64,000 nt of DNA from Stegostoma tigrinum (GCF_030684315.1 NC_081381.1:27655811-27719810), one strand, 5' to 3'; numbered from the stretch's first letter, positions 2,361 to 40,967 are shown. The notes: generated by a model not told the origin, from the sequence alone. Made by a program: numbers and translations.

Positions 2361-3925
2361 TGGATAAATATCAATAAAGATCAAACTCCTGGAGTTGGTT
2401 AGAGGTTAAAAAAAACGTATTGAAGAAATGGAATTTGCTGTAAACATTCATATATATTCGTAAACGTTTTTATGTAAATAGGATCCAATATGAGGCTTGG
2501 TACTGGTTGCGGTTATAAACAGTCAACTTTGGCATTGTTAACATAGATAAATTCATTTTATGAATATAATTGTTTAATTATGAATCAATGCGTTTTTGAA
2601 CTTACTTATATAATTATTTGAAATTAGTAATTTTTACTGTTATTGTTTACAGGCGATTATATTCTTACTTCTTAAATCTTACATATTTATATAGTACGGT
2701 AACACAGTGGTTACCGATTTAGAGGCCTGGACTATAATCTAGCAGGTAGCGACTTGAAATTCTACCGTGGCAGCTAAAAAATTCAGTTAAAGAACTAAAT
2801 CTGAAATAAAAAGCCAGTGTGAGTAACAAAAGTAAAACTCTGCAGATGCCTGAAATCTGAAATGAAACAGAAAATACGAGTACTACAAATACTCAGTAGA
2901 TCAGCCAGCATCTGCCGGGAGAAAAGGTTCGCGTTTCCGGTGTATAGTTATTCAGACTTGAGGAGTATAGAAGTGTGTATCACGTTTTCAGCAAGAGAAC
3001 TTGGGGAATAGGAAGAAGAACAAAGGGAAGGTGAAGCAAGAGTAAGTAGCAAGGAAGATTAAATGGGAAAAGATTTCACAATACAAAAGCCAAAAAGAAT
3101 GGCAAAGGGTACAATAAAGGAACAAAAGATGTGTCCAGAGTGGGGGACTATACTACAAAACAATGTTCAAATGCAAAATGAGGAAATAAAGAAAGAAATG
3201 AGAACAAAAAGGACAAGCAGAAACAAACATGAGGCCCAGGTTGTGGTCTAAAATGTTTGAACTCCACATTCAGTCCAGTAGCCTGTGGAATGTCAAGTTG
3301 AAAGTGAAGTTTCTGGTCCATGTCACATTGGTAGTCATGATGTGGAGGTGCTGGGGTTGGACTCGGGTAGACAATGTCAGAAGTCACACGAAACTAGGTT
3401 ATAGTCCAACAGGTTTACTTGAAATCACAAGCTTTCAGAATGCTGTTCCTTCATGAGGTGATGTCTGACTTCTGACATTGCCAGTCATCTATTTTCCAAA
3501 GTAGGCATGTGTCTGTCCTCTACAACTCTTTATTTGCATTTCACAGTTCAATATAAACTTCAATCCGCTCCCTTCCGAATATCACTGACTTCCTTCAGTA
3601 GGGAAAATCTGTTTTTTTTTAATGCCATTACCACAGCCTTCCCAGAAAAGGAGCTCCCTCTAACACCATTTCAAAAATTCTTAGATAGGATGGCACATGT
3701 GACAGCTGACTACTGGAAACTTTTCAGTAACAGATGCTACTTCACAAAGACATATCTCTGTCTGAAAGCAGATGTCTAATGACCTTCCTGCCTTTGTTGT
3801 CTGTGTGCAGATTCTTGATGAGGGACTCTCAGGTTCATGGCCCTATTCATGTTGATAATTGCCTATTGCTACTGGGCTTGCCATAAAGATCCTGGTAGAA
3901 AGATCCATGGCATAAAGATCCTGAT

Positions 3926-4297
3926 GGGGCAGCACAGTTGCTCAGTGATTAGCACTACTGCCTCACAGCACCAGAAGCCTGGGTTTGATTCCACCCTTGG
4001 ATGACTGTCATGTGGAGTTTGCATATTTTCCCAGTATTTGTGTAGGTTTCCACGGAGTGCTTCAGTTTCCTCCCAAAGTCCAAAGATGTGCAGGTTAGGC
4101 CATGTGCATGGTTTGGCCATGATAAATTGTCCATTGTGTCTAGGAATGTGTAGACTAGGTGGATTAGTCATGGTAAATGCAAGATTACAGAGATAGGTTA
4201 GGGGCCAGGTGTGGGTCGGATGCTGTTCGGAGGGTCAATGCAGACTTAATGGACTGAATTGGCCTCTCTCTGCACTGTAGGGATTCTATGATTCTAG
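3926..4297 (+). mobile_element. HE1-type tRNA-derived V-SINE
   Basis: tRNA-like head (A/B-box-like), V-domain tgtggagtttgcatatt...ccaaagatgtgcaggttagg, tail gattctatgattcta. Confidence 0.85.
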
Positions 4298-5269
4298 AAG
4301 CCTGCAAATGATTTTACTTAACCCGGAGATCTTTCAGAAAATATTTTCTGAAGAAGGGTCTAGGCCCGAAACGTCAGCTTCCCTGCTTCTCTGATTCTGC
4401 TTGGTCTGCCCTATTCATCCAACTCTACACCTTGTTATCACAGACCTTAATGAGTTGTTTTCTTTTGGTTTCTTCAATTCTTTCTGATTATTTGTTGACA
4501 ATACAAGGTTGTTGGTGCACCTACACTCAGGCATTCACTGGTTGAGAATGCGCCCTTTTAATGTTCCTGAAAATGGTTTTCACTTTTTCTTTCAACAGAG
4601 GGTTTGCCAAAAGAGCAGCTTACAGAGGAAGGGTAAGAGAGTAGTTAGCTCCTCGAGATTTTCTTCTATTCTGAATACATGGGAGAAAAAGAGAAATTGA
4701 TGCTTTCTCTTCACAGACTGGATGTTTGTGCTGTATTGTCAACATATAAAACTGTAGTCGCCTGCCCAGGAACCAATCAGGAGGGTGTTACTATGCTGAG
4801 TTGTCCTGATCACACAGCAGCTGGTGCTGATTAGACTGAAATTCTCAGTCATTGCCAGAATAAGGCTACATTGTAAAAACAAAATCCAATTTGTTCCAGT
4901 AACTTGTTTGTGAAATTGCAAATATCTCTTACATCACGTTCTTGCTTTAAAGCAGTATCTTTTCCAATTTTTGGTCAGCAGCCCAAAAATAATTGTCAGC
5001 TTTACGTAAGCAACAAGAATTTTCACGTCATGCTTATAACTGAACAGGAGTGATTTCATGGAACAGCCATCCACTCTCTATAGAACTGAATCCATCCGAT
5101 CTCCTTTTGGTCTCCCCATGTACAGGAAACCACTTTGTGAATATTAAACAAAAAAAATGCCAGGGAGACTAGAAAGAGGACAAGCAAAGTTGAGCATCAA
5201 GTATGTTTCAAAAGTGGAATGATATTAAAATGACCAAGTGAAGAGCATTCTCCCTGTATGGGTGCAGCA

Positions 5270-7785: not shown

Positions 7786-7789
7786 TGTT

Positions 7790-12091: not shown

Positions 12092-12682
12092 ATGAGGATC
12101 AGTAACTCAGGGGCAGTGTGTATGAAGCAGGCTGTTAACACAGCAGCTCGGCGCCGTAGGTGGAAACGCAAGGCCATGTTGGTGTTGACTGATGTGTCAG
12201 GACCTAAGCAACTGAGTGTGTTGTCACGCAGCTGTTGTCTGCTTGCACCCTGTCGCCGAGGAGTAAAAAGACCCTACCACAAACGGAGTACAAAGAATGC
12301 TGCAGTTTGGGAAAGTACAGAAGAAGTGTGTGATGGTGATGAGACTGAAAGATCAAATGCCGTAGAACAAGATGAAGAGCAAAATGAGGAAGAAGAAAAT
12401 AATACTGAATCCCCTCCTTATAATACAGATGGAAAGGTTAACGGTTCACTTACAGAAAGCAAGACTCAGCCAAAACATGCTTGCCAAGCACTGGAGGCCA
12501 ATGGAGAAGGAGAATGTCAGCAGTTGTATACAGATTCATTTGCTCTTAATGGGATTCACAACGGTGAATCATCTCAAGATTTCATTGATGATGCTGCTTC
12601 CCTTGAAGCTAGTACAAGACTGTCACTCACTGCAGTGAACATTGGGAATGAGCAGGCAGTTGTCCTCATGTCCCCATCACAG
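12092..12682 (+). CDS. NOL9: NOL9 coding exon 1 (basic N-terminus, acidic linker)
   Basis: Acceptor ...ataaacag at 12065, ATG 12092 (aagATG), donor CAG|gtagga, phase 0. ARRRRWKRK basic patch. The start could instead be the in-frame ATG at 12122. Confidence 0.85.
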
Positions 12683-15600
12683 GTAGGAGGAATTATTTTT
12701 ATTTTCACCGTAGTCTGTCTTCAGTGAAACTGCTGAATTCACTGGACTTCAGACCTCTCATTTTCTTTTATGTGCTTATACTTACTGGAGTACAGTACCC
12801 CTTTGTTGCCTGTCTCCAGCACTTCATGCACAGGCTCATGTGTTGACATTTGGAAGAAGATCCAGCTTTGGATTCCTTATTTAGAATTGAAGGCATTCTT
12901 TTGTCATGGTTTTCAGTGTTCTCAATTGCTCCTTTTTCTTTTTGCAGAAGTTGACATTTCAAGGAAGATGTCGCATGACTTGTCTGTATGGGAGTGTCGA
13001 AGTGTTAGGATTTACAATTGGACAGGGCCAGCCTGCATATTGCCTGTACTCCTTACCCACACACACTGCCCTGAGCATTGAAGCACTGCCTCATTGTAAA
13101 CCAGGCCGTACCAAGCGAGAGATGAAAATGGAGGTGAAAGCAGTTTTCCGGCAGCATGTACCAGCAGGTAAGGGTCCGGTGTTCGTGGAGAAAAACAGGC
13201 CATCAACGAAGACATCAAATATATGCTGTATCCATTCACTGTAATCGTAAACAGGGAAGTGGAGTAATTGCCACAGCATTTATTAGTGGATACTGAACGA
13301 TCAACATCAGGACAGACTGGGTTACTCTTCTTATCCTGTTGAAGCTGCCCATTTTAATAAATTTAGATTGAGGCACAAAATTAGAGGTATCAATAAATTA
13401 AGCAAAACAGTAAAACTGGGAAATTGATTTTATTGAAGGCAAGTGTGATATCCACTTTTAAGCCTGTAAAGAATAAAACAGTGAATATTACATAAGCTAA
13501 AAAGTTAGAAGCAGCAGATGATTGGATACACGGACTAGAAGTACATTTCAGCAATAAAAAAAAACCATGGAGTTCTGTGAGCGTCAGACTTTAAGAGGGA
13601 ATTTTGGTTTTGGAGGGATTGCAGTGTAGGTTTACTGGCATGATGTATTGAAATCCAAGGTTACATTTCAAGGAGGGATGAGACAAACTGGAGGTGCGAA
13701 GGTTAAAGGGTAGTTTGATCACTGTTTAGTATATTACAGGGAACAAATCGAGTAGATAGCAAAACATGCTTCTGCTGGTTGTGGAATCTCGTTCTTGGAG
13801 AAATCAGCTAAAAGTTAGAGCTGGGCTTTACAGCAAGGCTTTCCAGAACTTTAGAAATGCTTCCAATGTAAAAGTTTGAAATTGTTCTCCAAATGACACT
13901 GGGCTGCTACTGGAAAGTTAAGGATTATTGATGACATGAGGACAAACCTTTTTACCCAATTAGCACTTGGGAACTGGAATGCATTACCTGATGGTGGACA
14001 CACATTCAATCATGAATTTCAAAGTGATATTGGATAATTATCTGAAGAGAAATTTACAGCCCCTTGGGGAATATGTGGGAGAGTGGGACCAGAGTTATTG
14101 CATTTTAGGTGAACTGCTTTTTGTGTTTAAAGATTGGGTTTATCTGCCGTTAACAAGCCGTCAGTCCACAGATCACTTTCAAAACAAGCATCCAGTGATC
14201 CAAATAGTATCAACAACCATAATTAGCCATTTAGTAGGCTGAAGATAGGTTACTGTGTTAATTCTCCATTTTTAAAAAAAAACTTGCCTTAAGCAGCCAA
14301 TTTTCTTCCCTCCGATTTTGACGCGTTCAAGTGAGTACTGCAATATCCTTAGAATATCTTATCAATATCCACCCCAATTTGATACTTAATTTCCCTGAGT
14401 TTTTATTATTGAAATGTGGTGAAAGATGGAGGTCCAACTGGCAGTGTTTCCACAATTCCACAGATCAAACCAGCAACAGGGAATTAATACACAGAAAATG
14501 CTATAATTGCTCAGTAGGCAAGGGATCATTTATAATGCTGCTTCTCAAATTGACTGTCCCCTGGTTTGATAACAGCTAATCTTCCCTTCTACACCTCACA
14601 CCAAAACTAAATGCCACTGAAATCCTTGGCTACCAAGCCACCCATCACCATGAAGGCAGCCATGTATTTGGAAGTTGTGGACAGGGTTAGACACCTTATC
14701 AGCTCCTTGTATAAACACTAACACTAACTTCTGTTATGCAAAGTAGGTGGCATCTTATTCATTATTATCTTTTTCCTTTTTTTAGGTTCTGTTAATCCCC
14801 TAGAAAGTCTCTGCAGACTGCTAGTGTTCCGTGGACCCCATATTGAGAGTCACTGTAATTAGCCCCTCATGATTTTGAATATCTTTATCAAATTTTCACA
14901 CCACCATCTGCTGTAAGTAGGGCTATCTTCATTTCTCAAAATGATCATCATGATTAAGTCCCTCATCTCTAGAACCAATCTAGTGTTTTTTTCAGCACCC
15001 TGTTTGAGGCCTTCACATCTTTCCGAAGCATAGTGTCCAGAATTACACCCAACAATCCTTTTGTGAAAATATCAGTGTTTTATAAAGGTTTGTCATAATG
15101 TCCTTATTTCAGTACATTATGTCTTTGTTTAGAGGTCTCATATTTTTTAAAACTGTTTTCTCAGCCTGCCATGCCATCTTAAATGAAGCTATTAATTTAG
15201 ATTGCTTGCCTCTTCCTACCAAAATGTACAATTCCTCACTTCTGAATGAAACTTTGCCACGTCTGCCCATTCCACCAGCCTGTATGTGTCCTACTGAATT
15301 CTGTGACCATCCTCCTATTTGTTAACTGTGCCTTGGAGCTTTGTGTCACCTGAAAATTTTGAAATGTGCTTTCCATGGCTTAGTCCAAATAATATATATC
15401 GTACAATAATATATTTTTAATTGGTTGTTTGTAGTCTGTCCTTTACCTGCATTTGGAAATTTAGATGAGAGAATTTCTAGGTTTAAACAATGCTTGTGAT
15501 ATCTGTGGCTCTTCATTGCAGCATCAAGACACAATTTGATAAAGGAAGTGACGTCTTCATGCTCAGTTCTGCTCTTCGAGCATCTTGACACCCCTGGCAC

Positions 15601-18600
15601 TGTTTATCTGTCTAGCTTCCCAGAGTACAGGGAAATCTTTACTTCACATCCAGTGAGTTATTCATGAGATTTAGAGGCTTAAGATGAAAATGTTTTCTGG
15701 ATTTTGTGCTATGTGTGAGTGTTGCAAGTGTGTATTCATAAGATGAGCTTTGTCGGGTGTGTTGGCTGGGAGTAATAGCGTTATTACCTGTGGTTCTGCA
15801 ACACTTTCAATTTATGTATGTACCTCATGCTTTGGTCCTGCTGGGACTAATCTAAAACCTACAAGCATCAGAAGATATATACTGGTCATAAACTCATAGG
15901 GAATGGTATTTGAATTGTGTGATATCAGACATCAAGAAGTGTTGGGTAGCATCTTGCAGCAATCAGGTACCAAAACTAATTGAAAACTTGCCCAGTTTTC
16001 TAGCAAAATAAAAATTCTATTGTGTTGGTTAGCTTGCTCCGAATGAGATTGTTAGATATAGGATGCAGCAAAAAACAAGGTTGGTTAGCTTGGGTAACTA
16101 GATAATTGATTTGCATACAGGGTGGCACCAGAAATACAGGTCCAATTCCTGTATAGCTGGTATGTCTTAAAAAGGGACCTAATTAGATAGAATACACGTA
16201 TTAGGTTTTGTGGCACGTAGCAGTGTTCCTACCTCTCGGCCAGATGGTCAGAGTTCAAATCCCACTGCCTCTAGACATAGAACATTACAGCACAGTACAG
16301 GCCCTTCAGCCCTCGATGTTGTGCCACCCTGTCATACCAATCTGAAGCCCATCTAACCTACACTATTTCATGTACGTCCATATGCTTATCCAATGATGAC
16401 TTAAATGTACCTAAAGTTGGCGAATCTACTACCGTTGCAGTCTCGGTGTCTGAAAAGGTTGATTGAAAATAATGACATCTCAAGATTTAGAGGTATTTCG
16501 ATTCGGTATGAAGTTGCTTAGCAAATGATAACTCAGGTCTGCATTTATATAGATTCATAGTCACATATCTGAAGTTATTTAGGATGCTCTGATGTACACT
16601 CCAGCTAAAGAAGTAGTTTTGAACTTCAGTTACTTCTGTAAGGTAGAATACAAACAATTGCGTGTTAACCATAAAAATATACATCAGTAGCACTGAATAA
16701 AAGTCATTCGTACTGTCACACTGACTCAAACTGCCCGGATTAAGAGCTGTAAATAATGGTGAAGTAATTTTTTCAAAATCCAATCCTCAGCAAGAACAGT
16801 TGATGCAAGTGCCCAGAGGTTGTGCTGATTTTGATAGGAGCCGAGGATAACTTAGAAAGTGCGGGACAGTTCTGGGCACTGCAGCAGGAATCTATCAAAA
16901 CTGCAGTGAATCACATTATGCATTTATTCAGTTAGTGACCAGTATTTTATTGCCAACAGGTTAGAGACGGTTGGGCTGGTAAAAACAGGGTGAAGGACAG
17001 GCACTGTGGAACAAAGCCTTAGGCTGGGAACACTATCCCTAAGACCCAACAATTTCCCGTTTTTCCTCCTTACACTGGGTTCCTTTTTTTTTCTTTATTT
17101 ACCAACTGAAGACCTGAATTCTTTAGACCTGTATTTAATTTTGTCAGTAACAATATCAATGCCCCTGTAGTAGCCTAGCTGTGAGTATAATTTTATTTCT
17201 GATGCAGGCTTTATGATGAACTTAATGTTTGGTTTTGATTCTCACTTTCAGAAGAAGTTGAATTCTGGAAAACATTCATTCCTTGAATGCTCAGCTTTGA
17301 CCTCAATTGGAGTCATTCCCCTCCCTGATGATCAGGGGGTAACTATGTCGGACAGCTGGATTGCCACTGTGCAGGAACTTTTAAACACATGTCTGGGTAA
17401 GATGTCAGTGATGTGCTGATATATTAGAAACGTAACAGTTTTGTTACAAAATGCACATAAACCACTTTTTTTCTTGACCATGCCTTTGTCCATTTCACTC
17501 TGCCACTGTTTTATCTAATTATTTGCTGTTGCATGTAATTATTTAATTCCAGAAGAGCATTAGTGATTATTTTTCACAGTTCTGAGAACAAGCTTTAGAA
17601 ATTGTAGGCATAGCCTATTATGTTTGTACTGGTCTGGTGTTGGAATTATTTTAGTGAGCCAGAAATTGGAAGTGAGAGGGTAGATGTGTACAGAATGATT
17701 TGTTGGATCAGCTAGGGGCAGTTAAATATGATATTGATGCAGTAATTGTTGTGGATATTTTTGCTTTCTTGCAGAAGATGATGATAGATGTCCCATTATC
17801 TTGGTATGTGGAGGAAAGAATTTTGGAAAGTCAACCTTCAGCAGATATCTCCTGAATTCATTTCTAAATCAGTAAGTTTCAAAATCCTGTGACCTCTAGT
17901 GTTAATCCCAGAACAGTTAGTGAAAGCTGTGTCTAGAGTTTGAATTTGAACATTTGATGTTACGTTACTAACAATAACAGGACTTGAACTGCATTAATCC
18001 CCAAAGGTTGGTAGTTTGTCTCATGTTGAATTGCTGTTGATAGTTAAAGTCCTGGGTGTTTGGGAGCAGATTAAAATCTGTGAACCACACAGCAGCAGTA
18101 TCCTAATTTAGTTCTTGACCTGCGAAAAGCTACTTGGGGCAGTAGATCATGACTTTGGGGTTCCTGAACCTGAGGAGGTAACCCAAAGGTCTAGGATTCC
18201 TGCCTTGGCAGAAAGTGCACCTGAGGACAGGGAAGCACTGCATAGAATTTTCCAGCAGAGGAGACTATTCATACCTGAGCAGCTCATTACAGTAGTACAA
18301 ATTTAATTCCATTCCTCAACTGACTCCTATAATTCTCCAAATGAATACCATCGCCCCCTTCTCTCCTGGTGATTTTGATTTTCTGTTTCAAATATTTGTC
18401 TAATTCTCCTTTAAAATGTATCAGTCATAACCACTTCCTAGGATAATGCGTTCAATGTTGCAACTAAAACTTTGATTGTAAAAACCGTTTTTCTGATTTA
18501 TTTCATTATTTTCTTAGTGTTTAAATTGACGATCCTTCATTACTGACATCTCCACTACAGTGTTTGCAGAATACCCTTTTTTAAGTAATAGGAATGTTCC

Positions 18601-24600: not shown

Positions 24601-27600
24601 TTCCTTGACATCATAGCTAATTACCTAAATCTGCTGCTGTTGTACTTGCCCCCAGTGATGATTTGTGCGTTAACATTATGCTGACTGGAAATTTTTATTT
24701 GTTTCTGAATCTGTTTTATGACAGCAGCAACGCCATCAAAACACAGCTAAAGTCATTTTGAGATACCAAGGTGTAGAGCTGGATGAACACAGCAGGCCAG
24801 ACAGCATCAGAGGAGCAGAAAGGCTGATGTTTCGGGCCTCGACTCTGCTTCAGAAGTCATTTTGTGTCTAACACAGTGCACATAATCACTCCACATGGAG
24901 TCTTATAGAATACACACTGCTTCTGTAAGGAAGCCTAACCCATATGTGAGTCACAGAGATTAAGCACAGGTTAGACCCAAAAGTGTGGACCTCCTAACTG
25001 TGTAGAGCATTGCCTGGCATCCATCACCTCCAACTGGAAACACCCTATCATGGGTATGTTAATTTATAGAATTACCTGAGGTCAGTTGGCAGAAGGCCAG
25101 CTCTAAGTTAGAGGTCAATCAAAATTTTGGGAATGGATCACAATGCAACAATGGAAGCAGTAGTTGAATTGCCAACTAGATGTGACAGGCGGGAGTTATG
25201 AAAGTGTAGATTTTCTGCACCTGATCAGAGACTGACACGTCAGGGGAGTATGTATGGCATTTTAAATTCTCCAGGAAGAGTTCCTACTTCTGATGAAGAG
25301 AGCCCAGGTCTACTTGTTTATCCTGATTGGAGGTTTCATTTTCTGTCATTCCTTAGCTGTTGGCAGCTGTCAACTGTAAGATTCAAAGTGGTCCCGAGCG
25401 TAAAAGGCACTGCACATCTTTGTTTCTTTCTGAGATTGTAGAGGATCTATTTTCTAAGGGAGAGGAGAAGCCAGAGAGTACGTTTGATTGAAATTGTCAA
25501 AATCATGAGACATTTGGACAGGGATCAAGACACGAAGACAGGTTTAACGTGATTTTCAAAAGTAGTAAATATGATGAGAAACAATTTTCTTCTAACAGTA
25601 AGTAGTTTGTCTCTGGAATGCATGCCTGGAAGTATGGTGGAACCAGGGTCAATCAAGATGTTAAAGAAGCAGTAAATGATTATTTAAGCAGAAGTAATGT
25701 GTGCAGAGTTACAGCAAAAGGTCAGGAGAATGGCACAAAGTGATGGTGCTCATTCAGTGAGTCAGTGCAAGCACAATGGGCTGAACAGCCACTTTCTGCA
25801 CCATAATAGTTGTGATTCTGAAACTGAACTAACAGTCAAACCTCATGAGTTCAAATGCCACTGTGGCAAGTTGCAAAATTGAATTATTTTTGGTAGTGTC
25901 CCCACCAATTAGCAGCCTCCGTTCTATCAGGTTAACTGCCTATATTTAGAAAATGGTACACTCCAGACATGCTGACTGTCCAGAAGTTAGGATAGTTTCT
26001 CATACCTTTCATTAAGACCTAACACTCTTGCTGTTGTGGCAAATCCTTATTGATGAACATATAAATGTGAGGTGCTGCATTTTGGAAAGGCAAATCAGGG
26101 CAGGACTTTACCCACTTAATGGTAAGGTTCTGTGGAGAGGTGCAGAACAAAGACACCTTGGAGTGCAGGTTCATAGTTCCTTGAAAGTTGAAGGTAGGCA
26201 GGAGAATGAAGAAGGCATTTGGTATGCTTGCCTTTATTGGTCAATGCATTGAGAATAGGGGTTGGAAAATCATACTGAGGCTGCACAGCACATTGGTTAG
26301 ACTACTTTCGGAATGCTGCACTCCATTCTCGTCTCCCTGCTATTAGAAGGATGTTGTGGAACTTGAAAGAGTTCAGAAGGCATGTACAAGGATGTTGCTG
26401 AAATTGGAGGGTTTGAGCTACAGGGAGATGCTGAATAGGCTGGGGCTATTTTTCCTGGAGGCTGAGGCGTTACCTTATAGAAGTTTATAAAATCATGAAT
26501 GAAATAGATAAGGTGAACTGCCAAGGTCTCTTCCCCAGGGTAGTGGAGTCCACAAGTAGAGGGCATAGTTTTAAGGTGAGAGGGAGAGGGGAAATATTTA
26601 AAAGGGACCTCAGGGACAACATTTTCATGCGGAGGGTGGTGTGTGTTTGGAATGAGCTATCAGTGGAAGTGGTGGAGGCTGGTACAATTACATCATTTAA
26701 GAGCTATCTGGATGGATATATGAATTGGTAGGGTCTGGAGGGATATGGACCAAAAGTTGGCAGTGGGGACCAGATTAATTCAGAATATCTGGTTGGCATG
26801 GACGTATTGTACTGAAGCATCTGTTTCCATGCTGTACAGCTCCAAGACTCTATGGACGCCTCTGCCTCCATTGTACAATTTAAATACAGCAAACATTTTG
26901 TTAACTGGTGCCTATGGGACCAGAAGTGTGAAATCAAATTTCCACTTGATCAAGAGGTCTACTACGCACCATGTAATGGAAATATAACATAGGGGATGTA
27001 CTCATCGCTGTTTTATACTTTACAGCAAAGATTACTTAAATATTAATGCAACTTTGCCTTAAATAAAACTTAGCAGCAGAGAGTATTCTCACTCACAGCC
27101 TCAACTGACTATTCGGATATTGCAGAGATCCCTGGAGCGGGTTCAGAGGTGGTTCACCAGAATGGTCCCAGGAATGAAAAGCTTAACGTGACAAAAGTTT
27201 GAGGACTCTGGGACTATACTCGTTGGAGTTTAGAAGGATGAGGGGAGGATCTAATTGAAACTTACAGAATACTGAATGGCCTGGACAGAGTGGATGTTGG
27301 GAGGTGTTTTCATTTGTAAGTGAGACAAGGACCCGAGGGCACAGCCTTAGAGTAAAGGGAAAGCATATTAGAACGGAGATAAGGAGAAACTTCTTCAGCC
27401 AGAGAGCAGTGAATCTGTGGCATTCACTGCCACAGAAAGCTGTGGAGGCCAGGTCATTGAATACATTTAAGACTGAGATAGGTTCTTGATGACCAAGGGT
27501 TATGGGGAGAAAGCAGGAGAATGTGTTTGAGGAAATTATCAGCTATGATTGAATGGCAGAACAGACCTGATGGGCCAAATGGCCTGATTTCTTCTCCTAT

Positions 27601-30600
27601 GTCTTATGGTCTTATGATTTAATACAGTAAACTTGCGGTATTTGAGGTGTTTAATTTTTGGCAGTTTATTGAGAGTGCTGATTTTCTAAGGTGTTGGTTT
27701 GCACAGATTGTGTTTGGTATTCGGGGATGTATTGATATACACTGAATGCACAAACCTCTTTTGATAATGTTGCAGTCTACTGCTTTTGTTTATTTTGTTG
27801 GGTATTGTTACATTTAATATTGATTTGATTTTTGGTTATAGATTTAAAGGAAATAATAGCCCTTCACTTAATGTAAAGTTGAATTACCTTCATGGGTTAG
27901 GAGTTCCACCTTCAACCATTAAGGGGCAGCATGATGGCTCAGTGATTAACGCTGCTACCTCATAGCACCAGGGACCAGCGTTTAAATCTACCCTTGGGCA
28001 AATGTCTATGTGGAGTTTGCACCTTCTCTCTGTGACTACATGGGTTTCCTCCCACAGCCCAAAGATGTGCAGACTGGCTGGATTGGCCATAGGAAATTGC
28101 CATGGTGTCCCGGGCTTTGCAGGCTACGCGAGTTAGCCATGAGAAAGGCAGGTTTATAGGGAAAGGGTAGTGGGGTGGGTCTGAGTGGGTTGCTCTTTGG
28201 AGGATTGGTATGGACTCTGGGCTGAATAGTCTGCTTCTACATAGGTATTCTGTGATTATATCAATTATTATGAGTTGTGAACAAATTACATTTGTCTAAG
28301 GTTTTTGATTAGGTTTGTAGCTCAGGTTGTGGATGCTGTGGTTGGTTTGTTTGCCGAGCAAACATTTCAATACCCTGCTGGGTAGCATCATCAGTGCAGC
28401 CTCTGATGAAGTGCTGTTGTGTTTCCTGCCTGGTATTTAAACTCTGGGGTCCATTGGAATTGGTTACCTCATTTCCGGGTTTTTTTTTGCTGTGGTGTAT
28501 ATATAGGGTCTAATTCCAACTCTACGTTTTATTGATGGCCGCCTTGCTGGAGAACCAAGCCTCTAGAAATTCCTGTGCTTGTGTCTGTTTGGCCTATCTT
28601 AGGATTCTGATGTTGTCCCAATCGAACTGGTGGTTCTCCCTATCTGTGTGAATGGAGATGAGTAAATACTGTTCACGTGTTTTTGTTGCTAGTTGGTGTT
28701 CGTGTATTCTTGTGGCCAGTTTCCATCCTGTCTGTCCAACGACTGTCTCAAGACTGTGACATACATTATGTTGGAAGGAAACTGGCCACAAGAATACACA
28801 AACACCAACTAGCAACAAGCAGACCTGACCAGTACTCACTTGTCTCCATTCACACAGATAAGGAGAACCACCAGTTCGATTGGGACAACATCAGGATCTT
28901 AGGACAGGCCAGAGATAAGCGTGGGAATTTCTAGAGGCTTAGTTCTGCACCAAGAAAGCCATCAATAAACATGTAGGGTTAGACCCTATGTATACACCAC
29001 TGCAAAAACGGAAATGAGGAATCAATTCCAATGCACCCTAGAGTTTAAATACCAGGCGGGAAAACGCAACAGCGCTTCATCGGAGGCTGCACTGATGATG
29101 TTACCCAGCAGGGTAGTGAAAAGTCTGCAAACTAATGAACCAGCTTGGCAAGCGAACCAACTACAGCAAAATGCATTTTGTATCTGACTGCATCCCATAC
29201 TACATTATTGGTTTTGTTATTCTCTGAAATGACCCAGGAAATTTATCAGAAACATGTTTTTATGTTGAAAATTAGAACATTGAGTAAAACTAGCCCCACC
29301 CAAGTAGTCTTATCTGAGGGATAAGGTGTAGACTAGAATATATAATGTTTGTTCCACAAAGGTTTGCGTGTTTTAATATATACACATCTAGGTACCCCTG
29401 ATACTTGTGATCTTAGTCCCCCTTCAAATCTGACTAATTTTCTTTGTGCCCCACCCCAACCTGTTCTTCTCAATAGGATTTGGTTTGTCGATTTTGGTTG
29501 ACCTGATTCGGCTCTTGGCCCCAACCCACGTGGTGCAGCTTGGCAGCGCTGAAAGGAACCAGGATCCTCCGCTCCTCACGCCAGAGTTTGTGCAGACCGC
29601 AGCTGGATGGCAAACTAAGGGAAAACATCACATTCAGCAAAAACCGATAGATTTCAAGATGCCCTTTAGCTTATCGGAGGAGGAGGAGGAGGAAGAGGAG
29701 GATCATGTGACCCTGCATGGAGGATTCCGGGGACACAGGTTGATGCGTGTTCAGTCTGAGTTTCCTGGAGTGGGAGAGGGAAGCTGTTTGTAAGTATAAA
29801 ACTGTCAGTTATTCTGTTGTGTTAATATGTGCACATTGTAACAACCTCCCCAACAGATGAATACAGCCAGTTTGTAATAAAGCAGAGAATGTTGTTTAAA
29901 CATCCACACTCTCTGCCACCATGATACATCTGTACTACCTGCAGAATGTACTGCAGTAACTCACCAAGGCTTCTTTGACAGTAGCTCCCAACCTGTGACC
30001 TGTATCACCTAGAAAGGCAAAGACAGCAGGAACATAGGAACACCATCATCTCCAAGCCTTGCTGACATTTATTCTCCAATGCAAATTCCTCCTGTCCTTC
30101 CTCAATATCGCCATTACCTTCTGTTGCCTTCTTCCCTTACATGCTTTTCGGATTTCCATTTAAATGCTTCTATAGTAGAACACTCGATGATTCCAAATTC
30201 CCAGAATGCTGAAGATGCTTCTGAATTTCCTTTTTGATTTCTAGATATCTTTTATTGATGATCACTGGTATTGCTGTCCCTTACAGTGGTAACAATGTTT
30301 TCGCAATCAAAACACAATGCAATTTTAAACAGTTCATCCTTTCCTGGTGGGTTCAGCTTCACAGTTCTCATATATGTACTGTTACCAGCTCTACTGTTGA
30401 CTTGTGTTTACAGATGCAAAAAAAAACTGAAACTTGCTGTCCTGACAGAACCTTTCTGCTGCCATGTTTTTCAGGAAGTCCCGCAGCAATGTCTTAAGGG
30501 AGTTGGCTCTTCTGGGTTATTTTAGCGAACTGCAGCCATCAGACACTGGGTGTCCCTTGCTGTTGCACAGCATGCTACCCTATCAGGTACCCGCACTCCT

Positions 30601-33600
30601 TTTGCCCATTCAACTCCAGTTATTTCTGTCAGCTGAAAGTTTTAATGAATAGGGCATGAGTCATAGTACAGGTGTTTCCCTGTGTTTGCTTTGTGTGACG
30701 CAGTTTACCACAGGATGCATTATTTTATGAGAACTGAGGTTAATTCTGCTGCTTGACGGGGAAGCCTTTTTAGACAATTTAACTTTTGGAAACTGTGTGC
30801 ACTCTCCAATGCGCCAATCCATCCACCAACATACAATATAATTCAACATGATGGACATAAGATCATGGCATAGAAATTAGATTGTTCTGAACATGACATA
30901 AACTCCAAAAGCAATATATTATGTGCATGTATAATGAATCAGAGGAATGGTGGCTAAGTGATCTGCCAGCTTCATTTGGAAGATAACGGCAAGTTGACAG
31001 TGATATTTTTAGATACTGACTTGGGGTGAATTCTGAGTGGTGGGTTTAAGAGGAGATATAAATTGTGGCTAGAAGCAGTCTGCTGTTTTTATTGTGGTTT
31101 CAAGAACAACTTTTCCCAACTGCCTTTCCATTAAGGTAAAGTACAGAAAAAAAGATTGTATATGGTGCCTTCCAGTTATTCCTTTTTAGAATCCTCTTAT
31201 TTGACTGCAGATTGTCCTCCCACCCCTCCTTGTGGATGTTGCCCTTTACTTTCTGTTTCTAATTTAGTTCACTATCCATCAGGATACTGTGAGATAAAAG
31301 ATTTTGAAATAAGCAGACAGAGTAATGTGTTTTGTAATGTGCAGTGCTACTTTGTAATAGTGCTCCTCTCTTCAAAAATCGAGTTAATATTGTTTGAACT
31401 TCCCTTGTTGGACCTAGAATTGATGCTTTCAATGTCGTGTAGCTTGGTGCGATTGAGGGATCTGCATATCTGATTATGAGGGGGGAGTAAAGTTATAGCA
31501 TTCTAGACAGGAGCATTACTACTGAAAAAAGAAGTTGGTAAATTAAACTTTAATGGAGGCAATATGTTTTGAACATTGTTATTCAAATCATTTTCCCTTT
31601 AATTAAAAGGTAGTATTAGGTGTTGTGCCATGTAGTACTTTGGGTCCTGTGTAGGGTGGGACAGTGTTGGATTCCAGATGCAAGTAATATTGGATGTTGG
31701 CATGCACTGTGGAGCTGCAGGGTGTCGATGGATAATTTTCTAAAAACAAAACTGGCTTTTGTTTTCCAGGTGCCATTTAGTGCAGTTGCTCTGCATGTGC
31801 TACATTGTGATGTAACTCCTACCAACATTTTATATGCAGCCAATGCTAGCTTAGTTGGATTATGCAGAATACCAGATGTTGTCTGCTCCCAGGCAGATGG
31901 GCCTGTATTGCTCCCAAAGCCTCCCTTATGTGACTGTTTTGGTATTGGTAAGTACTGAGACTTGTACAAGATCACATCCTGTTGGATAGAAGTGTGTTGT
32001 TCACTATCCAATCTCTCTGCATCGCCAGTGTACAGTGCTGAAGCTTAGCAGTTTAACAGAGCTGAGGTGCAAAATAGCCATCGGTAGTGCAAATGTTTGG
32101 TACTCACGAATGCTTTCGGATTCATGGAACAGGCATATCCTACACACTCTGGTCACCCGGTTTTCAGATACCATCAAATACCATTTGCTTTCACAAGCCA
32201 TGGTGTTGTCATGTGACCAAATTACCTTTGCAGTCATGTCATCAATATTGTGTATTCAGATGCAACAGCAAGGCCCTATAAGTATTAAATGTATCATTAG
32301 GGGAATAATGTTTAGTCAATACTGTGGAAGGATTGAGTCAATGTAAGAAAACGTAAAAGTGTCCTAAGTTGTGTTTCTTTAATTTATTCACTCATGGGGC
32401 ATGGGCATCCCTGGCTGGCCAGTATTTATTGCCCATCCCTAGTTGCCCCCGATAGGGTGATAGTGAGTTGCTTTCTTAAACTGCTGTAGGTTGACCCTCA
32501 ATGACCTTAAGGAGGGAATGCCAGGATATTGACCCAGTAACACTGAAGAAATGGCATTATGTTGCCAGGTCAGGGTGGTGAGTGACTCGGTGCACAGCTT
32601 GCAGGTGATGGTGTTCCCATGTATCTGCTGCTTTTGTCCTTTTCAGACAGAAGTGTTTGTGGTTTTGGAAGGTACTGTCTAAGGAGCTTTGAATTTCTGC
32701 AGCGCATCTGGTAGATAGTACACACTAATGCTACTGAGTGTTGGTGGTGGTGGGGGTAGATATGGTACAGGTTAAGCAGGCTGCTTTGCTCTGGATGGTA
32801 TCAAATTTCCTGAGTGGTATTGAAGCTCTACCCAACCATGCAAGAGACGAGTATTCAGTCACACTCCTGACTTGTGCCTTTGTAGATGGTGAACAGGCTT
32901 TGGGAGTTAGATGAGTTACTTGCCACAGTATTCCCAGCCTCTGACCTATTCTTGTAGCCACTGTTTTTATGGCAAATCCAGTTGAGTTTGAGATCAGTAG
33001 TAACCCCAAGGATGTGGATAGTGGTGGATTTGGTGATGGTAACACCATTGGATGTCAAGGGGCAGTGATTAGATTGTCTCTTATTGCAAATGGTCATTGC
33101 TTGGAATTTGTGTGGCATGATTGTTACTTGCCACTTGTCAGCCCAAGCCTGGAAATTGTTCACATCTTGTCGCACTTGAACAGTGACTGCTTCAGTATCA
33201 GGAGTCACGAATGGCACTGAACATTGTGCAGTCATTGGCAAACATCCCCAAGTCTGACTTTACAATGGGAAGGTCATTGATGAAGCAGCTGAAGGTGGTT
33301 GAGCCTGGGTCACTACCCTGAAGAACTCATACAAAGATGTTCTGGAGCGGAGTGACTGACCTCTAACAAGCACAACAATCTTCCTGCGTGCTGCATATGA
33401 TTCCAGTCAGCTGAGAGTTTACCCCCTCACGATTTGATTCCAGTTTTCCTAGGTTTCCTTGATGCCACACTCAGTCGAATGTGGCCTTGATGTTAAAGGC
33501 TGTCCCTTTCATTGTCACCTCATCAAGTTTAAAGTCTTCCACAAAGATGACTGTCTGACAGTGCAAAAATGTCTCAGGACAGTATTGCACTGCAGACCTA

Positions 33601-36446
33601 GATTGTGCACGCAAATTGGATGAATGGTGTACCAACAAGGATAGTACCAACTGAGCCAAGCTGCAACACACACTTCTTACAATGTATGCGGTTATAATGA
33701 CAGTGCCTTCCCAGTCCTGCTCTAACCGACGGGATGAATTTTTTTCCCTCGCTCAACTGGCCAAGAATCCTACATGAAATGAGTTTGCACTTTAAACCTA
33801 CATATAAGTGGGTGCTGTCCAATAACACAACTGCCAAGAGTGGCTCCAAAACTTGACTGAAGGCTGGAATTTTGTGTCCAGGTCTGTCGAGCTATGTGAT
33901 TGTGCCTCACTTGCACTTGATGAGTATGACCTAGACTCAAATGATCTCCATTAAAATAAATTGAATGCTGTTGAGCAGGTTTGTGCTACATGTGTGATTT
34001 GGTCTTTGCTGTAAGACATCAAAATATTCACTATTTGGATTAATTTAATACCTTTCCTCTGTAGGAATAATTCGTGGGATTAATTTGGAGAAGAGATTGT
34101 ATTATATACTAACACCAGTTCCTGTGGCCCGGCTAAAACAGGTTAACTGCTTGCTGATTGGGGCAGTCACCATCCCCCATTCACTTTTCAGGAACCAGGT
34201 AAGTGGAACGTGAACTACCATGATTACTGAACTACAGAGTGTGTGATCTGCCCACCTAGAATATTACTGATCACTGCTGTTGCACTAGCCATGTTGTTGA
34301 GTGAACCCGAGAAACAAATGCTGAAATAATATTGAATCTTTTGATTTGAAGAATTATTATTAAATAGTTGCACAGTTGATTTTCTTCATGGACTGTACAT
34401 GTTGGATGGAGTCAGTTCAGATGGATTCTGTTAGTGAGAATGTGAGGGGCCGTTGATTGGTTGCATCTGTTGAGCAGGTAGTGTTGCGAGGGTGTGTTTG
34501 GGCAAAGCTGGTGTATTAACTAGTTAATGGTGCATCTGCAGGGTTAATGGTATACAGTTGTATTTGGCTTGGGGTAATTGCTGGATAATTGCACTTTGGC
34601 GTGCATGCAGGCGTGGCTGGTAGGTTTGTTTGCTAGTTTTGCCCATGCTGTAAATATGTTTAGTTCACTGTTGTTTCCAGCTATTTTGTTGTAGAGATGT
34701 GATCCTTTATAATAACCTTTTTTAATTTGTTAGCAAGATTATCATTTATTGCCCATCCTTGATTGTCCTTGTGAAGATGATTGTGAGTCACAGCCTTAAA
34801 CCATTGAAGTCCATGTGATATGAGTTGACCCACAGAGCTGTTACAGAGGAAGATCCAAGATTTTGACCCAGTGACAGTGAAGGAATAGTGATTATATTCC
34901 AAGGCTTGGAAGGGAACTTGCAGGAGATGACGTTACCATCTGTCTGCTTATCTTTCTAGGTTGCAGAGGCTGTGGTTTGGAAGCTGCTGCCTAAGGAATC
35001 TTAGTGAGTTTGTGATAGTGCATCTTGCACCTGGGACACTCTCTGCTGCCACTGTGTGTCTGTGGTGGAGGGAGCAAATGTAGAAGGTGCTAGAAAGGAT
35101 GCCAGTCAGGGAGTCAGCTTTGTGCTGAGTGGTGTCAAGCTGTTTATGGTATAGGAGCTGCATTCATCAAGGCAACTGGCAAGCATTCCATCTCACTTGT
35201 GGACCCAAAACTGAGCATCAGCGAGCAAGTGTTTTTGAGTAAGTGTCACTTGATTACACCTTGTGTATATAGTGGTTTTTGACTGGGATGGATTTCAGTT
35301 TTTTTGGGGCAAGGCATATCTAGGCAATTATCCCATTGCCAGATAGATGCCAATGATATAACTGCAATGCATCAGCTTGGCTAAGGTACAGTGATCCTTA
35401 ACATCCACCTGAGAGGACAACGTTTGAACAAGACTAGAGGATTTTTCTCCTGGTTCCTGGCCAATAATTATCCCTGAACACAGTGATGCTGATACCTAAA
35501 TATGCATACGAGAAAAACAGCTGGGGAGAAAATGTAAGCGAAAGGTACACAAGGGAAAAGTGAAGCCCAGAAACAAAAAAAAATTCGCTGGCCATTGTGG
35601 ATTTCAATCTTGCAGCAGCACAACATACTGAAAACAAATTCTGATTACTTAATTTGTACTATCGGAGCCTCTCTTCCTTCAGCACGCCACCATCTCCCAA
35701 TATTATTGCACAAATGCTGCTCCCTCCACACTTCACATCAGCCCTGATGAAGAGTCATCTTGCCGTGAAATGTAAGCTTACTCTCTCTCCATGGATGCTG
35801 CCTGACCTGCTGTGACTTCCACCTATTTTTGTTTTCAGTACAGATTCCAGCATCTGCAGTTATTTGTTCCCAAAATGAAGTATACACAGCACTGACATTT
35901 GCACTTGATTACTGGACTGCACCATCCCTGTAATGTGCACATGAATAAAACTTGCCTTGAGATATTGGACCATAGGGTCTGGACACTTTTTCATACATCA
36001 CAAGCAAGACTACTCTACACATACAAGTCTAGGTGGGATGTATCACAGGGTTTCTTTCATCACTTCAAAACTTTTCAAGAATAATGTGTCAGGAAAGGGC
36101 AGTTTATTATTTCTGTTTAAGGTTGCCCAGGGCCTTTGATCCAGTCAATGGCTAGGTGATTGAAGAGCAGCAGAGGTAAACTGCAGAGCAAGGGGTAGGT
36201 GCCAGTGAGTCAAGGTTTCATCTCCATTGCCATGGAGCAGAAACTTTGGAACAGCTTGAAATTCTGAAGTGATGGTCTGGCAGATTCCCCTGTCATGCTG
36301 ACTTATTTTTATTTCCCTTTCAGCCTGAAGTGACAGGAGAGCTTCCATACGTAACGACCGATTATTCCTTCGATATTTCTGGAGCTGGAAAAATTAAAGT
36401 ATGTAAACAGCTGAGAAGGCGGGAGCATCATAAAGATGTCTCATAA
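12092..36446 (+). CDS. NOL9: NOL9 polynucleotide 5'-hydroxyl kinase, whole spliced CDS (12 coding exons, 767 aa)
   Basis: Exons join in frame with GT-AG sites (591+220+131+145+97+98+162+313+112+178+134+123=2304 nt). Contains Clp1/Grc3-family motifs: P-loop GGKNFGKST, DLGQTEF, INTMGWVKG, GIIRGINLEKRLYYILTP. Confidence 0.96.
12948..13167 (+). CDS. NOL9: NOL9 coding exon 2
   Basis: ttttgcag|AAG...GCAG|gtaagg; KLTFQGRCRMTCLYGSVEVLGFTIGQGQP resembles the vertebrate NOL9 N-terminal domain. Confidence 0.95.
15522..15652 (+). CDS. NOL9: NOL9 coding exon 3
   Basis: cattgcag|CA...CCA|gtgagt; ASRHNLIKEVTSSCSVLLFEHLDTPGTVYLSSFPEYREIFTSHP; phase 1 to 0 fits neighbours. Confidence 0.92.
17252..17396 (+). 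CDS. NOL9: NOL9 coding exon 4
   Basis: ctttcag|AAG...CTGG|gtaaga; KKLNSGKHSFLECSALTSIGVIPL...ELLNTCL; phase 0 to 1. Confidence 0.92.
17775..17871 (+). CDS. NOL9: NOL9 coding exon 5 (P-loop)
   Basis: cttgcag|AA...CA|gtaagt; EDDDRCPIILVCGGKNFGKSTFSRYLLN contains the Walker A motif. Confidence 0.97.
21121..21218 (+). CDS. NOL9: NOL9 coding exon 6 (catalytic DxGQ motif)
   Basis: catatag|T...CTTG|gtaagt; IPCVEFLELDLGQTEFSPPGCMALHLVTEPIL. Confidence 0.97.
21990..23230 (+). mobile_element. Decayed RTE-like LINE RT region
   Basis: AFMDFEKAF..VDWVKL, LEQVSKYSCLG, WTEEVTN remnants; split by the SINE at 22342-22679. Confidence 0.6.
22342..22679 (-). mobile_element. HE1-type V-SINE nested in an RTE-like LINE
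   Basis: Reverse complement of the 3926 element. Confidence 0.85.
23642..23803 (+). CDS. NOL9: NOL9 coding exon 7
   Basis: ttttacag|GC...AAAG|gtcaga; GPPYMHQCEPRKMVYYG...PLVINTMGWVK. Confidence 0.96.
24029..24240. mobile_element. Short palindromic Penelope-type terminal repeat insertion (also ~9549-9915, 21480-21620, 44490-44640, 50725-50935, 63475-63680)
   Basis: gaggaacacagcaggccaggcagcatcagagg is followed by its reverse complement cctctgatgctgcctggcctgctgtgttcctc. Confidence 0.8.
26050..26850 (+). mobile_element. CR1 LINE 3' fragment
   Basis: QRHLGVQVHSSLKV, TSRGHSFKVRG, RRVVCVWNEL remnants and CR1-like 3' end. Confidence 0.85.
27130..27620 (+). mobile_element. CR1 LINE 3' end
   Basis: TRTRGHSLRVKG..RRNFFSQRAVNLWHSLP; tail cttatggtcttatg. 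Confidence 0.88.
27923..28258 (+). mobile_element. HE1-type V-SINE
   Basis: Same head, V-domain and tail as the 3926 copy. Confidence 0.85.
28306..29167. mobile_element. Penelope-like element: two inverted GIY-YIG C-terminal/terminal-repeat copies
   Basis: DCDIHYVG-RKLATRIHKHQ...HQFDWDNIRILG on +, and VGQTGWKLATRIHEHQ...HQFDWDNIRIL on -; arms ~400 bp. Confidence 0.9.
29088..29129 (+). ncRNA. Minimal type I hammerhead ribozyme motif in Penelope terminal repeat
   Basis: UGCA-CUGAUGA-U-GUUACCC(AGCA)GGGUAGU-GAAA-AG-UC-UGCA: conserved core, 7-bp stem II with G.U pairs, 4-bp stem I. Activity not demonstrated. Confidence 0.65.
29477..29789 (+). CDS. NOL9: NOL9 coding exon 8
   Basis: ctcaatag|GA...TT|gtaagt; GFGLSILVDLIRLLAPTHVVQL..., includes an 8-residue poly-Glu run. 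Confidence 0.95.
30475..30586 (+). CDS. NOL9: NOL9 coding exon 9
   Basis: tttttcag|G...CAG|gtaccc; KSRSNVLRELALLGYFSELQP...LHSMLPYQ. Confidence 0.94.
31770..31947 (+). CDS. NOL9: NOL9 coding exon 10
   Basis: ttttccag|GTG...ATTG|gtaagt; VPFSAVALHVLHCDVTPTNILYAANASLVGLC...CDCFGI. Confidence 0.96.
32380..33530 (-). mobile_element. LINE (CR1/L2 group) 3' fragment; related copies at ~34735-35390 (-) and ~51020-52320 (-)
   Basis: QAWADKWQVT, ILGVTTDLKLNW, YKAQVRSVTEYSSLAW remnants; shared 3' end with the other copies. Confidence 0.8.
34065..34198 (+). CDS. NOL9: NOL9 coding exon 11
   Basis: ctctgtag|GA...CAG|gtaagt; GIIRGINLEKRLYYILTPVPVARLKQVNCLLIGAVTIP. Confidence 0.96.
36324..36446 (+). CDS. 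NOL9: NOL9 coding exon 12 (terminal, TAA stop)
   Basis: ccctttcag|CCT; PEVTGELPYVTTDYSFDISGAGKIKVCKQLRRREHHKDVS*. Confidence 0.95.
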   Translation, partial: PEVTGELPYVTTDYSFDISGAGKIKVCKQLRRREHHKDVS

Positions 36447-36730: not shown

Positions 36731-36736
36731 AATAAA
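36731..36736 (+). terminator. Probable NOL9 polyadenylation signal
   Basis: First AATAAA I found after the stop codon (~285 nt 3'UTR), followed by T/GT-rich sequence. Confidence 0.6.
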
Positions 36737-38898: not shown

Positions 38899-40081
38899 AA
38901 GCCATCGGTGAATTTAACATTTTCCCAATCAATAGAAACCTTCAGTTTTTCAGACCTTGATGGAAAATGGTCAAAAAGCATAGCATATTTATTCAAATGT
39001 AGCAGTAATATAGGAAATATTGAAATTGCAATAACTTCAAAACTTGTTCTGTTATGCTGTGAAAAATTATAACATTTTTCCCAGCATTACCTAAAGAACA
39101 GATACTCAAACTGGGTTTTTTAGGTTCAGTGGGTGCTGGTTCCCATAAATACCAAAACATGCATTCCAAAGACATTGACACTCACTGGGGTATGGGTCTC
39201 ATGAGCTCACTGTCTGGATTTCAGCATCCACACACACTGTCGCTTGCTGGAGTATGAATCCTGCAGGCACTTGTTTCAGCTGAGGTATTGGTTTCACAGG
39301 TATTGGCTCACGTGGATGTGGGTTCCATGGTTGTCAGCTGTCATGGACAACATTTCACGTGCAGTTGAACAAATTTGCTGTTTGTACAATTGCTTTACTA
39401 ACAACGAGCTTACCGAAAGACCAAATTTTCCACATTGAAATTTAAAATCTGGATCCATTCCATCAACCCTTACTAACTGAAGCAGGCTTTCATAATTGGC
39501 GAGTGGCCTGGCCTTGCTGGGAGCAGGGATGAAAGAGTAGTGAATGTCAGTCAGACTCAGAATCTTGTCTCCCTTTGGGAGTGATTTACATCTTGAAGCT
39601 GATTATTGGATAGGTGTTAACTGTGGCCCCGTTGTAGCAATTCTGTCAATATTTAATGTTGAGATCATGCTAGGCCTCCTAAGGAAAGAAATCTGACTAC
39701 ACAATGCAGTCATCTGTTATGTGCTACGCCTAATGTTCCCTCTGAAGAATGGTATGCTGAAGAAATACATTCTGCGATATAGAAATGTGCTTCTCGTTCC
39801 TTCAGCCAGTCCACTGCCTTCACACCTGCTCATTGCACCAGAAACAAGGAACTGCTAGAAATCCCCCTTTTAACTATGTGTTTCTATGATCAAAGGCTAG
39901 CATCTGGGACTGGTGGGAGATGCCAGCCTGACCTGGGCAGCACCTTCAAGTACCTGCACAGTGTTGAAGCCAAGATATTTTCCTGGTTGAGGTAAGAGGG
40001 TGACAACCAATGGTTGATACAGTGTGGAGAGCCTCCATGTTGATAAAGTTGCTCAAGGTTTTGAAGAGGGGAAAGACATGT

Positions 40082-40119
40082 GGTTCTGAAGAAGGGTCAC
40101 CGGACCTGAAATGTTAACT
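40082..40119 (+). ncRNA. Minimal hammerhead ribozyme motif (second family)
   Basis: GGUU-CUGAAGA-A-GGGUC(ACCG)GACCU-GAAA-UG-UU-AACU. Confidence 0.55.
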
Positions 40120-40967
40120 CTGTTTTCTCCTCCACAGATGCTGCCAGACCTACTGAGCTTTTCCAGCAACTTTGTTTTTGTTCCTGATTTACAGCATCCG
40201 CAATTCTTTTGGTTTTTGTCAAAGGCTTCTGAATCTTACTTGGCAAGTAGCTACCTCCCAATTTCAATTTGCCTTCTTTAATGGCATTACCTATGACTTA
40301 ATGTCGCTCCTGTGAGCCATGAACTCAGGCTGGATTGCCTCAGTAAACACAGCAATGGCGGCCTCTCTGTTACACTCTCCTTTTCCACTTGTCACCTCCA
40401 TGGGAAAGGAGAAAGAAGTTCAATGCAGCTCCTGAAGCCAGAAAGCAGCTCCTCTGCGTCATGAGTTTTGTTCTTATTTTATTGTCGAGTACAAATGCTT
40501 AGTTGTGGAAGTTGAAAGCAAAAAAAAGACCAGGTCAGCCCTGAAATGGATACTAAATTTTGGTGCACTTGCAATACACATAGTACTGTAATAATTGCAT
40601 TAAATTGAAAAGCAAGGTGGTGGCTGATGTTGTTATTCAGGAATGTTGCCTTTTATTAAATAAATCTGCACCCAAACTAATGTATAAGAATGCACTTTAA
40701 ACATAGGACATCTATAACAAAGGAAAAGTTTGACTAGACGTTTCTACCCCAATCACATTCTGCCAATTACAGTCCCTGATCATTATCCTGCCTCTCTGCT
40801 TCCTGCTGCTTAGCTAGTCTTTTAGAATAGAAACTAAGACAATCGGAGGCTCACTGATGATGTTACCTAGAATGGTGACGAATCGTCTGAAAACTAACCT
40901 TCCAGCTCAGCGAGCAAACTCACATCCAGAAACTCAACCTGAGCTATAAATCTTCTCAAAAATCGCT

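Follow-up and report, generated by a model that had tools for sequence, protein, structure and literature searches.

Minimal type I hammerhead ribozymes in the terminal repeats of Penelope-like elements (PLEs) are a motif class already known since 2014. In the double hammerhead described for them, stem I is built from the 5' strand of one copy and the 3' strand of a second, and stem III is self-complementary (PMC4209133). Reported activity is low or protein-dependent (PMC4209133, PMC11167929), and one of nine Xenopus dimers was cut (bioRxiv 10.64898/2026.07.22.740005). Head-to-head inverted copies and target duplication are known from PLEs (PMC8557442, PMC3846280), an internal promoter is known for Penelope (PMC2377424), a CX2-5CxxC linker is a criterion for Neptune elements (PMC8557442), and the Anolis element Poseidon_Ac (PAc) has two start sites for reverse transcriptase (RT) (PMC11167929). 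Here, hammerhead motifs were analyzed in a 64,000-nt window of the 3.2-Gb genome of Stegostoma tigrinum (GCF_030684315.1 NC_081381.1:27655811-27719810) that contains the gene NOL9; an earlier note on this DNA had listed eight. We put at roughly 85% the probability that the eight are minimal type I hammerheads in PLE terminal repeats, present as 5'-truncated or inverted, decaying and likely inactive copies. The copies are real, very abundant and mostly fossil shark PLE minimal hammerheads; what they contribute is their scale in this shark genome and the statistics of their junctions.

Hammerhead cores and their parent elements

All eight cores were found at the places claimed for them, exactly or within a few bases, and the count leading to a predicted cut after C29125 was right (Table 1; each core is named by its first base on its own strand). 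A minimal hammerhead descriptor, re-implemented after the text of fig. S7 of PMC4209133 with a stem I of 3-7 bp, passed two of the eight (29092 and 40086), and a relaxed version allowing 2 bp added 4348 and 24146. In 200 dinucleotide shuffles of the window, the mean number of matches was 0.01 (strict) or 0.025 (relaxed), with a maximum of 1. The eight motifs are real and above chance (4 matches vs 0.025 in shuffles). Their division into three families held in outline only: family A comprises A1 (28394 and 29092) and A2 (40854), and family B comprises at least two, B1 (4348 and 24146) and B2 (40086; 35744 resembles B2 but is weak and divergent). With family C, there are at least five families; B1 was further split into young and older sets.

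The attribution of the motifs to PLE terminal repeats was borne out by cores that lie around or behind open reading frames (ORFs) for RT plus GIY-YIG or for an endonuclease. In L181, one of the sampled genomic loci (numbered with the prefix L), a pair of B1 cores on the same strand, separated by 3,528 nt, flanks an RT plus GIY-YIG frame split in two; relatives carry PF00078/PF01541, and the ORF has a CX4CxxC linker, as in Neptune-type elements. Older B1 and B2 cores lie ~350-460 nt behind endonuclease ends like that of L181. A1 and A2 cores sit behind ORFs without the CX2-5CxxC linker; in the L190 ORF, VIY is not preceded by the motif, and a Pfam search with this ORF piece gave no hit. On these frames, B1 and B2 can be tied to Neptune-type endonuclease-positive (EN+) PLEs, B2 by tblastn likeness only and with a linker that is shared with Nematis, and A1 and A2 to Penelope/Poseidon-type EN+ PLEs with a linker-less GIY-YIG. 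The core was seen in both terminal repeats for B1 only (L181), and only behind the ORF end for A1, A2 and B2. Within the window, the 29092 core itself follows a decayed endonuclease end (28772..29010), a call made by three-frame translation and visual comparison with the ORF end linked to A2 in L105. Weighing against a PLE origin for all eight is family C, which had neither an ORF link nor a long copy in the sampled loci. Family C loci L046-L070 often have short reiterated TCACT-like units directly before the core.

The earlier note had regarded the motifs as retrozyme-like non-autonomous elements. This was not supported: the copies in the window are scattered ends of coding PLEs, 5'-truncated or inverted, with family C, not linked to an ORF, as a possible exception. 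No tandem array of two or more consecutive complete hammerheads occurs among them, and rare tandems were met elsewhere in the genome (L184, L189). The 28394 and 29092 cores are the two arms of a single A1 insertion, and the B1 insertion at 24014..24246 is bounded by a 13-bp target duplication (24014-24026 and 24234-24246). Profiles built from genome copies gave 24 matches to hammerhead repeats in the window, against the eight listed. More B1/B2 terminal-repeat copies lie at 9540-9916, 21516-21624, 38247-38487, 40969-41155, 44488-44643, 44786-44891, 50722-50922, 53781-53862 and 63466-63670; several are head-to-head, and the core is mostly broken or missing. An Rfam scan of the window at E<=10 returned no hammerhead family and only hairpin look-alikes under their cut-offs, several of them microRNA look-alikes that arise because these further copies lie there.

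Decay is evident in the eight cores. The palindromic stem III dinucleotide ascribed to the intact copies is kept by only four window copies (CG at 4348, 24146 and 40854, GC at 3457), with AG at 29092 and TG at 28394, 35744 and 40086; both broken cores, 3457 (CUCAUGA) and 40854 (GAAU), have the palindrome. No copy among the eight has its core intact, stem III palindromic and at least 3 bp of stem I all at once. Stem I of B1 is only 2 bp long, as in the family majority, a feature that had gone unmentioned. The best-folding monomer is 40086, with P(stem II) of 0.98; 3457 and 40854 were folded without flanks. GAAU was considered as the mark of a spreading A2 sub-lineage and rejected: its pattern has 24 exact genome matches vs 7,482 for a shorter, 33-place A2 pattern with that base free, or ~0.3% of A2 copies (the patterns differ in length), and the first 100 matches listed of the free-base pattern are all GAAA. 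On these counts, GAAU is a private change of 40854 and no family trait.

The very high copy number that had been predicted was amply confirmed. A single 28-nt B1 core sequence is matched exactly at 92,176 places in the genome (control, 0). An unbiased sample of 1.2 Mb inside 11 genes, located by Sushi and Spectrin domain hits, gave 421 profile matches (351 per Mb), which, if typical, extrapolates to about a million hammerhead-repeat fragments genome-wide. Exact cores occur once per 35 kb, and inside genes no cost is visible; this argues that inserted minimal hammerheads are near-silent in host transcripts. Per 600 kb there were only 28 cores in spectrin-repeat genes but 48 in sushi-repeat genes, with both strands alike. 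Separately, seven loci (L099, L104 and L108-L112) share the same A2 insertion with 3-kb flanks that are 98-100% identical; they lie on three contigs, near contig ends, as in a recent segmental or subtelomeric duplication.

The invariant core (CUGANGA / GAAA / UH) was recovered in the majority sequences of young B1, older B1, B2, A1 and A2, and in that of a 25-locus set of family C; the 12 family C copies of the unbiased set gave a majority string too decayed for this comparison. Pair counts over the families showed a stem II of 3-7 bp with a G10.1-C11.1 closing pair after one extra base. Stem I has 3-4 bp in A1, A2, B2 and C and 2 bp in B1, below the published 3-7 bp. The palindrome at 15.2-16.2 is GC in C; in young B1 and A2 it is CG, which gives way to TG/CA in older sets. 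CG was retained in 61/73 young B1, 34/80 older B1 and 8/66 B2 copies, the remainder being mainly TG or CA. The covariation reported for the stems was upheld across families, which differ in sequence and keep pairing, but inside young B1 there was no recurrent two-sided pair change. Change within families is mostly CpG decay, which also turns G-C pairs of stem II into G-U. A fixed core, with stems that change while keeping their pairing across families, points to selection on active masters, in which the ribozyme is kept intact.

In young B1, non-CpG mismatch was 1.5% in the core vs 2.4% in the tail (p=0.21). Two comparisons count against decay as the whole history of the inserted copies, with a mismatch of 3.5% in the core vs 7.3% in the tail of older B1 (p<0.001) and of 9.1% vs 12.6% in B2 (p=0.02). 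This better core retention is probably due to diverged masters together with the requirement that hits cover the core; selection could also produce it.

Copy ends and junctions

The 3' ends of B1 copies cluster at ~+92-101 and +124-132 from C3. At the other end, 30/119 young B1 copies begin in -8..+2 vs 8 in -140..-9 (0.035 vs 0.0012 per nt, ~29-fold), as do 56/125 older B1 and 46/115 B2 copies; the pile-up is weak in the A families (A2, 2/18; A1, 1/13). The pile-up is most simply read as run-off at an RNA start. The same sharp ends would be expected if the short copies (~100-135 nt, core plus tail) were an independent element with its own masters, akin to a short interspersed element or a retrozyme; nearly all copies of family C begin just before the core, with no long copy found, and a few short tandems are present (L184, L344). 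Such an independent element, most plausible for family C, is nevertheless improbable: 41/119 young B1 copies extend beyond -140, the longest reaching far into the ORF while sharing core and tail with the rest, and the tandem arrays that define retrozymes (PMC7229834; bioRxiv 10.64898/2026.07.22.740005) are not formed by these units in the window. In the same-strand tandems L184:2789-2943 and L189:2456-3215, the perfect cores are spaced by 59 and 726 nt, respectively, and the L184 tandem restarts at -4, the hot-spot position. A G that could derive from a cap precedes the hot-spot 5' ends in 16/31 rows (15/24 after subtraction of 7 subfamily-variant rows) vs 24/108 elsewhere, but in only 5/16 non-inverted rows; inverted arms can themselves supply a G.

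A second position of interest is +28, the predicted cut, where 2,687 apparent 5' ends were counted vs 469 at +30. The raw excess was rejected as stand-alone evidence for cleavage: of the first 30 junctions, 20 are inversions that share 2-4 nt of microhomology, chiefly at the AGCT palindrome, and their removal leaves an excess over +30 of merely about two-fold. A cleaner class comprises head-to-tail restarts, where +28 follows, with an overlap of 0-1 nt, on element sequence from further downstream that ends at ~+96, +200, +216 or +275. Seven loci of this class were found among the first 100 matches at +28 (51 were examined, with the 49 starting with AA or GG left out) vs a single locus in the first 40 matches at +30; scaled to the span searched (105 vs 253 Mb), this gives p=0.001 in a post hoc comparison with one control position. 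Over positions -10 to +59 in the unbiased 1.2 Mb, the sole direct restart was at +28. L344 carries one and the same joint, +216 to +28, in two places, which is what a circle or a repeated jump would produce. The restarts point to cleavage in vivo, if only as a hint.

These findings have to be weighed against an origin without any cutting in vivo, in which the 5' pile-up reflects RT stalling, at the stem II hairpin or in the G-rich complementary DNA of the upstream pyrimidine tract, and +28 reflects microhomology. The inversions just described fit this explanation, as does the failure to find RNA reads ending at the cut in Anolis (PMC11167929). It accounts less well for a pile-up common to B1 and B2 despite their differing upstream sequences and weak in A1 and A2, whose stem II is longer, or for head-to-tail restarts with 0-1 nt of microhomology that single out +28, and we consider it unlikely. 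The copy ends likely record the start and cut sites of the element's own RNA.

A mechanism can be proposed on this basis. The element's RT would prime ~90-130 nt 3' of the core, where the 3' ends cluster (priming as suggested by PMC11167929), and would copy toward the 5' end, with most copies stopping early. In the Neptune-type families, stops fall mostly within 8 nt of the core, likely at the beginning of an RNA made from an internal promoter. The ribozyme would likely cut the element's own RNA occasionally, as a dimer or with the help of the element's protein, and copies lose the motif after insertion, chiefly by CpG decay. Our tentative proposal, held at slightly less than even odds, is that the fossil record of Neptune PLEs captures an RNA that starts at the 5' edge of the ribozyme and a hammerhead with a 2-bp stem I that cuts in vivo 28 nt on, the 3' piece sometimes being copied as a circle or by repeated jumps. 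If true, such copying of the cut 3' piece would be a birth route for retrozyme-like tandem units. The junction statistics bear on the open question of whether cleavage by PLE hammerheads occurs in vivo and what purpose it serves.

NOL9 and its pre-mRNA

The NOL9 exons in the window match a Stegostoma tigrinum protein (P0001) at 92-100% over most exons, and tblastn of P0001 places the stop codon at 36444-36446 on the + strand. RNA contigs from four runs of a related organism contain GT..AG joints from 23801 to 29475 (4/4 runs) and from 34195 to 36321 (3/4 runs), and these joints fix the borders of introns 7 and 11; the contigs define intron borders only, as RNA ends are not readable from them. 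Only three of the eight listed copies (24146, 29092 and 35744) are both sense and intronic in NOL9. The 28394 core is antisense in intron 7, 3457 and 4348 lie 5' of the gene, and 40086 and 40854 lie past the stop codon.

The earlier note had proposed that sense intronic copies pair in cis and cut the NOL9 pre-mRNA. In its favor, introns 7 and 11 do hold three sense cores, and 24146 is intact with a CG stem III. Of the six ordered pairings of the three cores, five give a stem I of 0 bp; the sixth, 24146 with 35744, can be drawn with a 2-bp stem I and G-U wobbles in stem III, across 11.6 kb. Stem III is AG at 29092 and TG at 35744, and 35744 lacks stem I. Folding in sequence context predicted P(stem II)=0 for all three cores, with 24146 and 29092 each sequestered by its own inverted arm; at 29092 it is the CUGANGA that is wholly paired, inside a long hairpin.

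If such cores cut pre-mRNA, sense copies would be expected to be rare in introns. The 1.2 Mb within 11 genes contained 41 sense vs 35 antisense cores (p=0.57). The numbers were 28 vs 26 for cores with CG or GC (14 vs 13 for those lacking an inverted partner), 9 vs 7 for cores passing the published descriptor and 217 vs 204 for all profile-matched copies. In three sushi-repeat genes, perfect sense cores of identical sequence number 4, 4 and 6 in 200 kb. Several points temper this result. The 95% interval of the sense fraction (0.42-0.66) leaves room for modest depletion, strand symmetry is forced in part because 190/421 copies are in head-to-head pairs, the strand and identity of the sampled genes were taken from Pfam domain hits, and the folding is an equilibrium, protein-free prediction from which co-transcriptional folding could differ. 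Collectively, with no fully compatible pair, two cores in fold-back hairpins and no loss of sense copies over 1.2 Mb, identical perfect cores included, the NOL9 pre-mRNA is likely not cut, and cutting in cis by paired intronic copies is extremely improbable.

Other features of the window were noted in passing. A short + strand stretch at ~4600-4631, with a pyrimidine tract and AG before it and GTAAG after it, is by eye a possible exon of an upstream gene, in which case the 4348 core would be intronic in that gene. A minisatellite at 58982-60770 has 105 copies of a 17-bp unit with 86% matches. Another dispersed repeat of ~300 nt, unrelated to the hammerhead families, occurs at 2-192, 3926-4296, 22341-22677, 27922-28262, 38579-38898, 52798-53095 and 53653-53774.

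Table 1. Coordinates of NOL9 and of hammerhead-bearing features in the window
Feature	Coordinates	Strand	Remarks
Family C core	3429..3457	-	CUCAUGA broken; stem III GC; stem I 4 bp; element ~3321-3467; 5' of NOL9
B1 core	4348..4375	+	Intact; stem III CG; stem I 2 bp; element 4345-4447 begins 3 nt ahead; 5' of NOL9
NOL9	12092..36446	+	12 coding exons, start to stop; tblastn of protein P0001
Head-to-head B1 insertion	24014..24246	.	NOL9 intron 7; arms 87% alike
B1 core	24146..24173	+	Intact; stem III CG; stem I 2 bp; GAAA-NN-UH predicted wholly paired with inverted arm
B1 copy	24751..24855	-	Core broken; intron 7, antisense; absent from the earlier list
Head-to-head A1 insertion	28294..29201	.	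Intron 7; arms ~81% alike; bears decayed endonuclease ends
A1 core	28361..28394	-	Antisense to NOL9; stem III TG; stem II partly decayed
PLE endonuclease gene, C-terminal part	28772..29010	+	Decayed, frameshifted; precedes 29092 core
A1 core	29092..29125	+	Stem I 4 bp; stem II 7 bp; stem III AG, non-palindromic
Divergent B2-like core	35744..35774	+	Intron 11; without stem I; stem III TG
B2 core	40086..40115	+	Stem I 4 bp; stem III TG; element 40083-40224; past NOL9 stop
A2 core	40854..40887	+	Private GAAU; stem III CG; element 40843-40969; past NOL9 stop

Comparison with known systems

Sharks are absent from the part of the PMC4209133 supplement text that was searched, and no study of shark PLE hammerheads was found among the titles listed in a literature search outside subscription journals and Repbase/Dfam; one preprint (bioRxiv 10.64898/2026.07.22.740005) includes a cartilaginous fish and could bear on novelty. 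The closest system is the minimal hammerhead of metazoan PLEs (Cervera and de la Pena 2014, PMC4209133), with which the shark motifs share the CUGANGA-N-stem II-GAAA-NN-UH layout with its extra base before stem II, the G10.1-C11.1 pair, the palindromic 15.2-16.2, the terminal-repeat location and the occurrence as mainly single truncated copies with some opposite-strand pairs. They differ in that the dominant shark family, B1, has a 2-bp stem I, outside the 3-7 bp descriptor and given in that source for D. virilis alone, and in number, with one shark core at 92,176 exact copies vs ~9,000 (Xenopus) and ~4,000 (coelacanth) motifs in all.

PAc (Frangieh et al. 2024, PMC11167929) and shark family A are alike Poseidon-type, and PAc likewise shows two clusters of 3' ends past the ribozyme, the "tail". 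For PAc, protein-assisted cleavage was shown biochemically, is dispensable for insertion and left no RNA reads at the cut; for the shark elements, genomic junctions hint at cleavage at the predicted site.

Neptune and Penelope/Poseidon EN+ PLEs with inverted terminal repeats (pLTRs) (PMC8557442, PMC3846280) resemble the shark elements in 5' truncation, in the head-to-head inverted copy, in target duplication (here 13 bp, 24014/24234) and in RT with a C-terminal GIY-YIG, B1 having the CX2-5CxxC linker. The sharp 5' end at the ribozyme edge seen here was not met in the passages of those two papers that were consulted. Non-LTR retrozymes (PMC7229834; bioRxiv 10.64898/2026.07.22.740005) have a type I hammerhead that is kin to that of PLE terminal repeats, but they form tandem arrays with at least two complete motifs, whereas the shark window copies are single or inverted.

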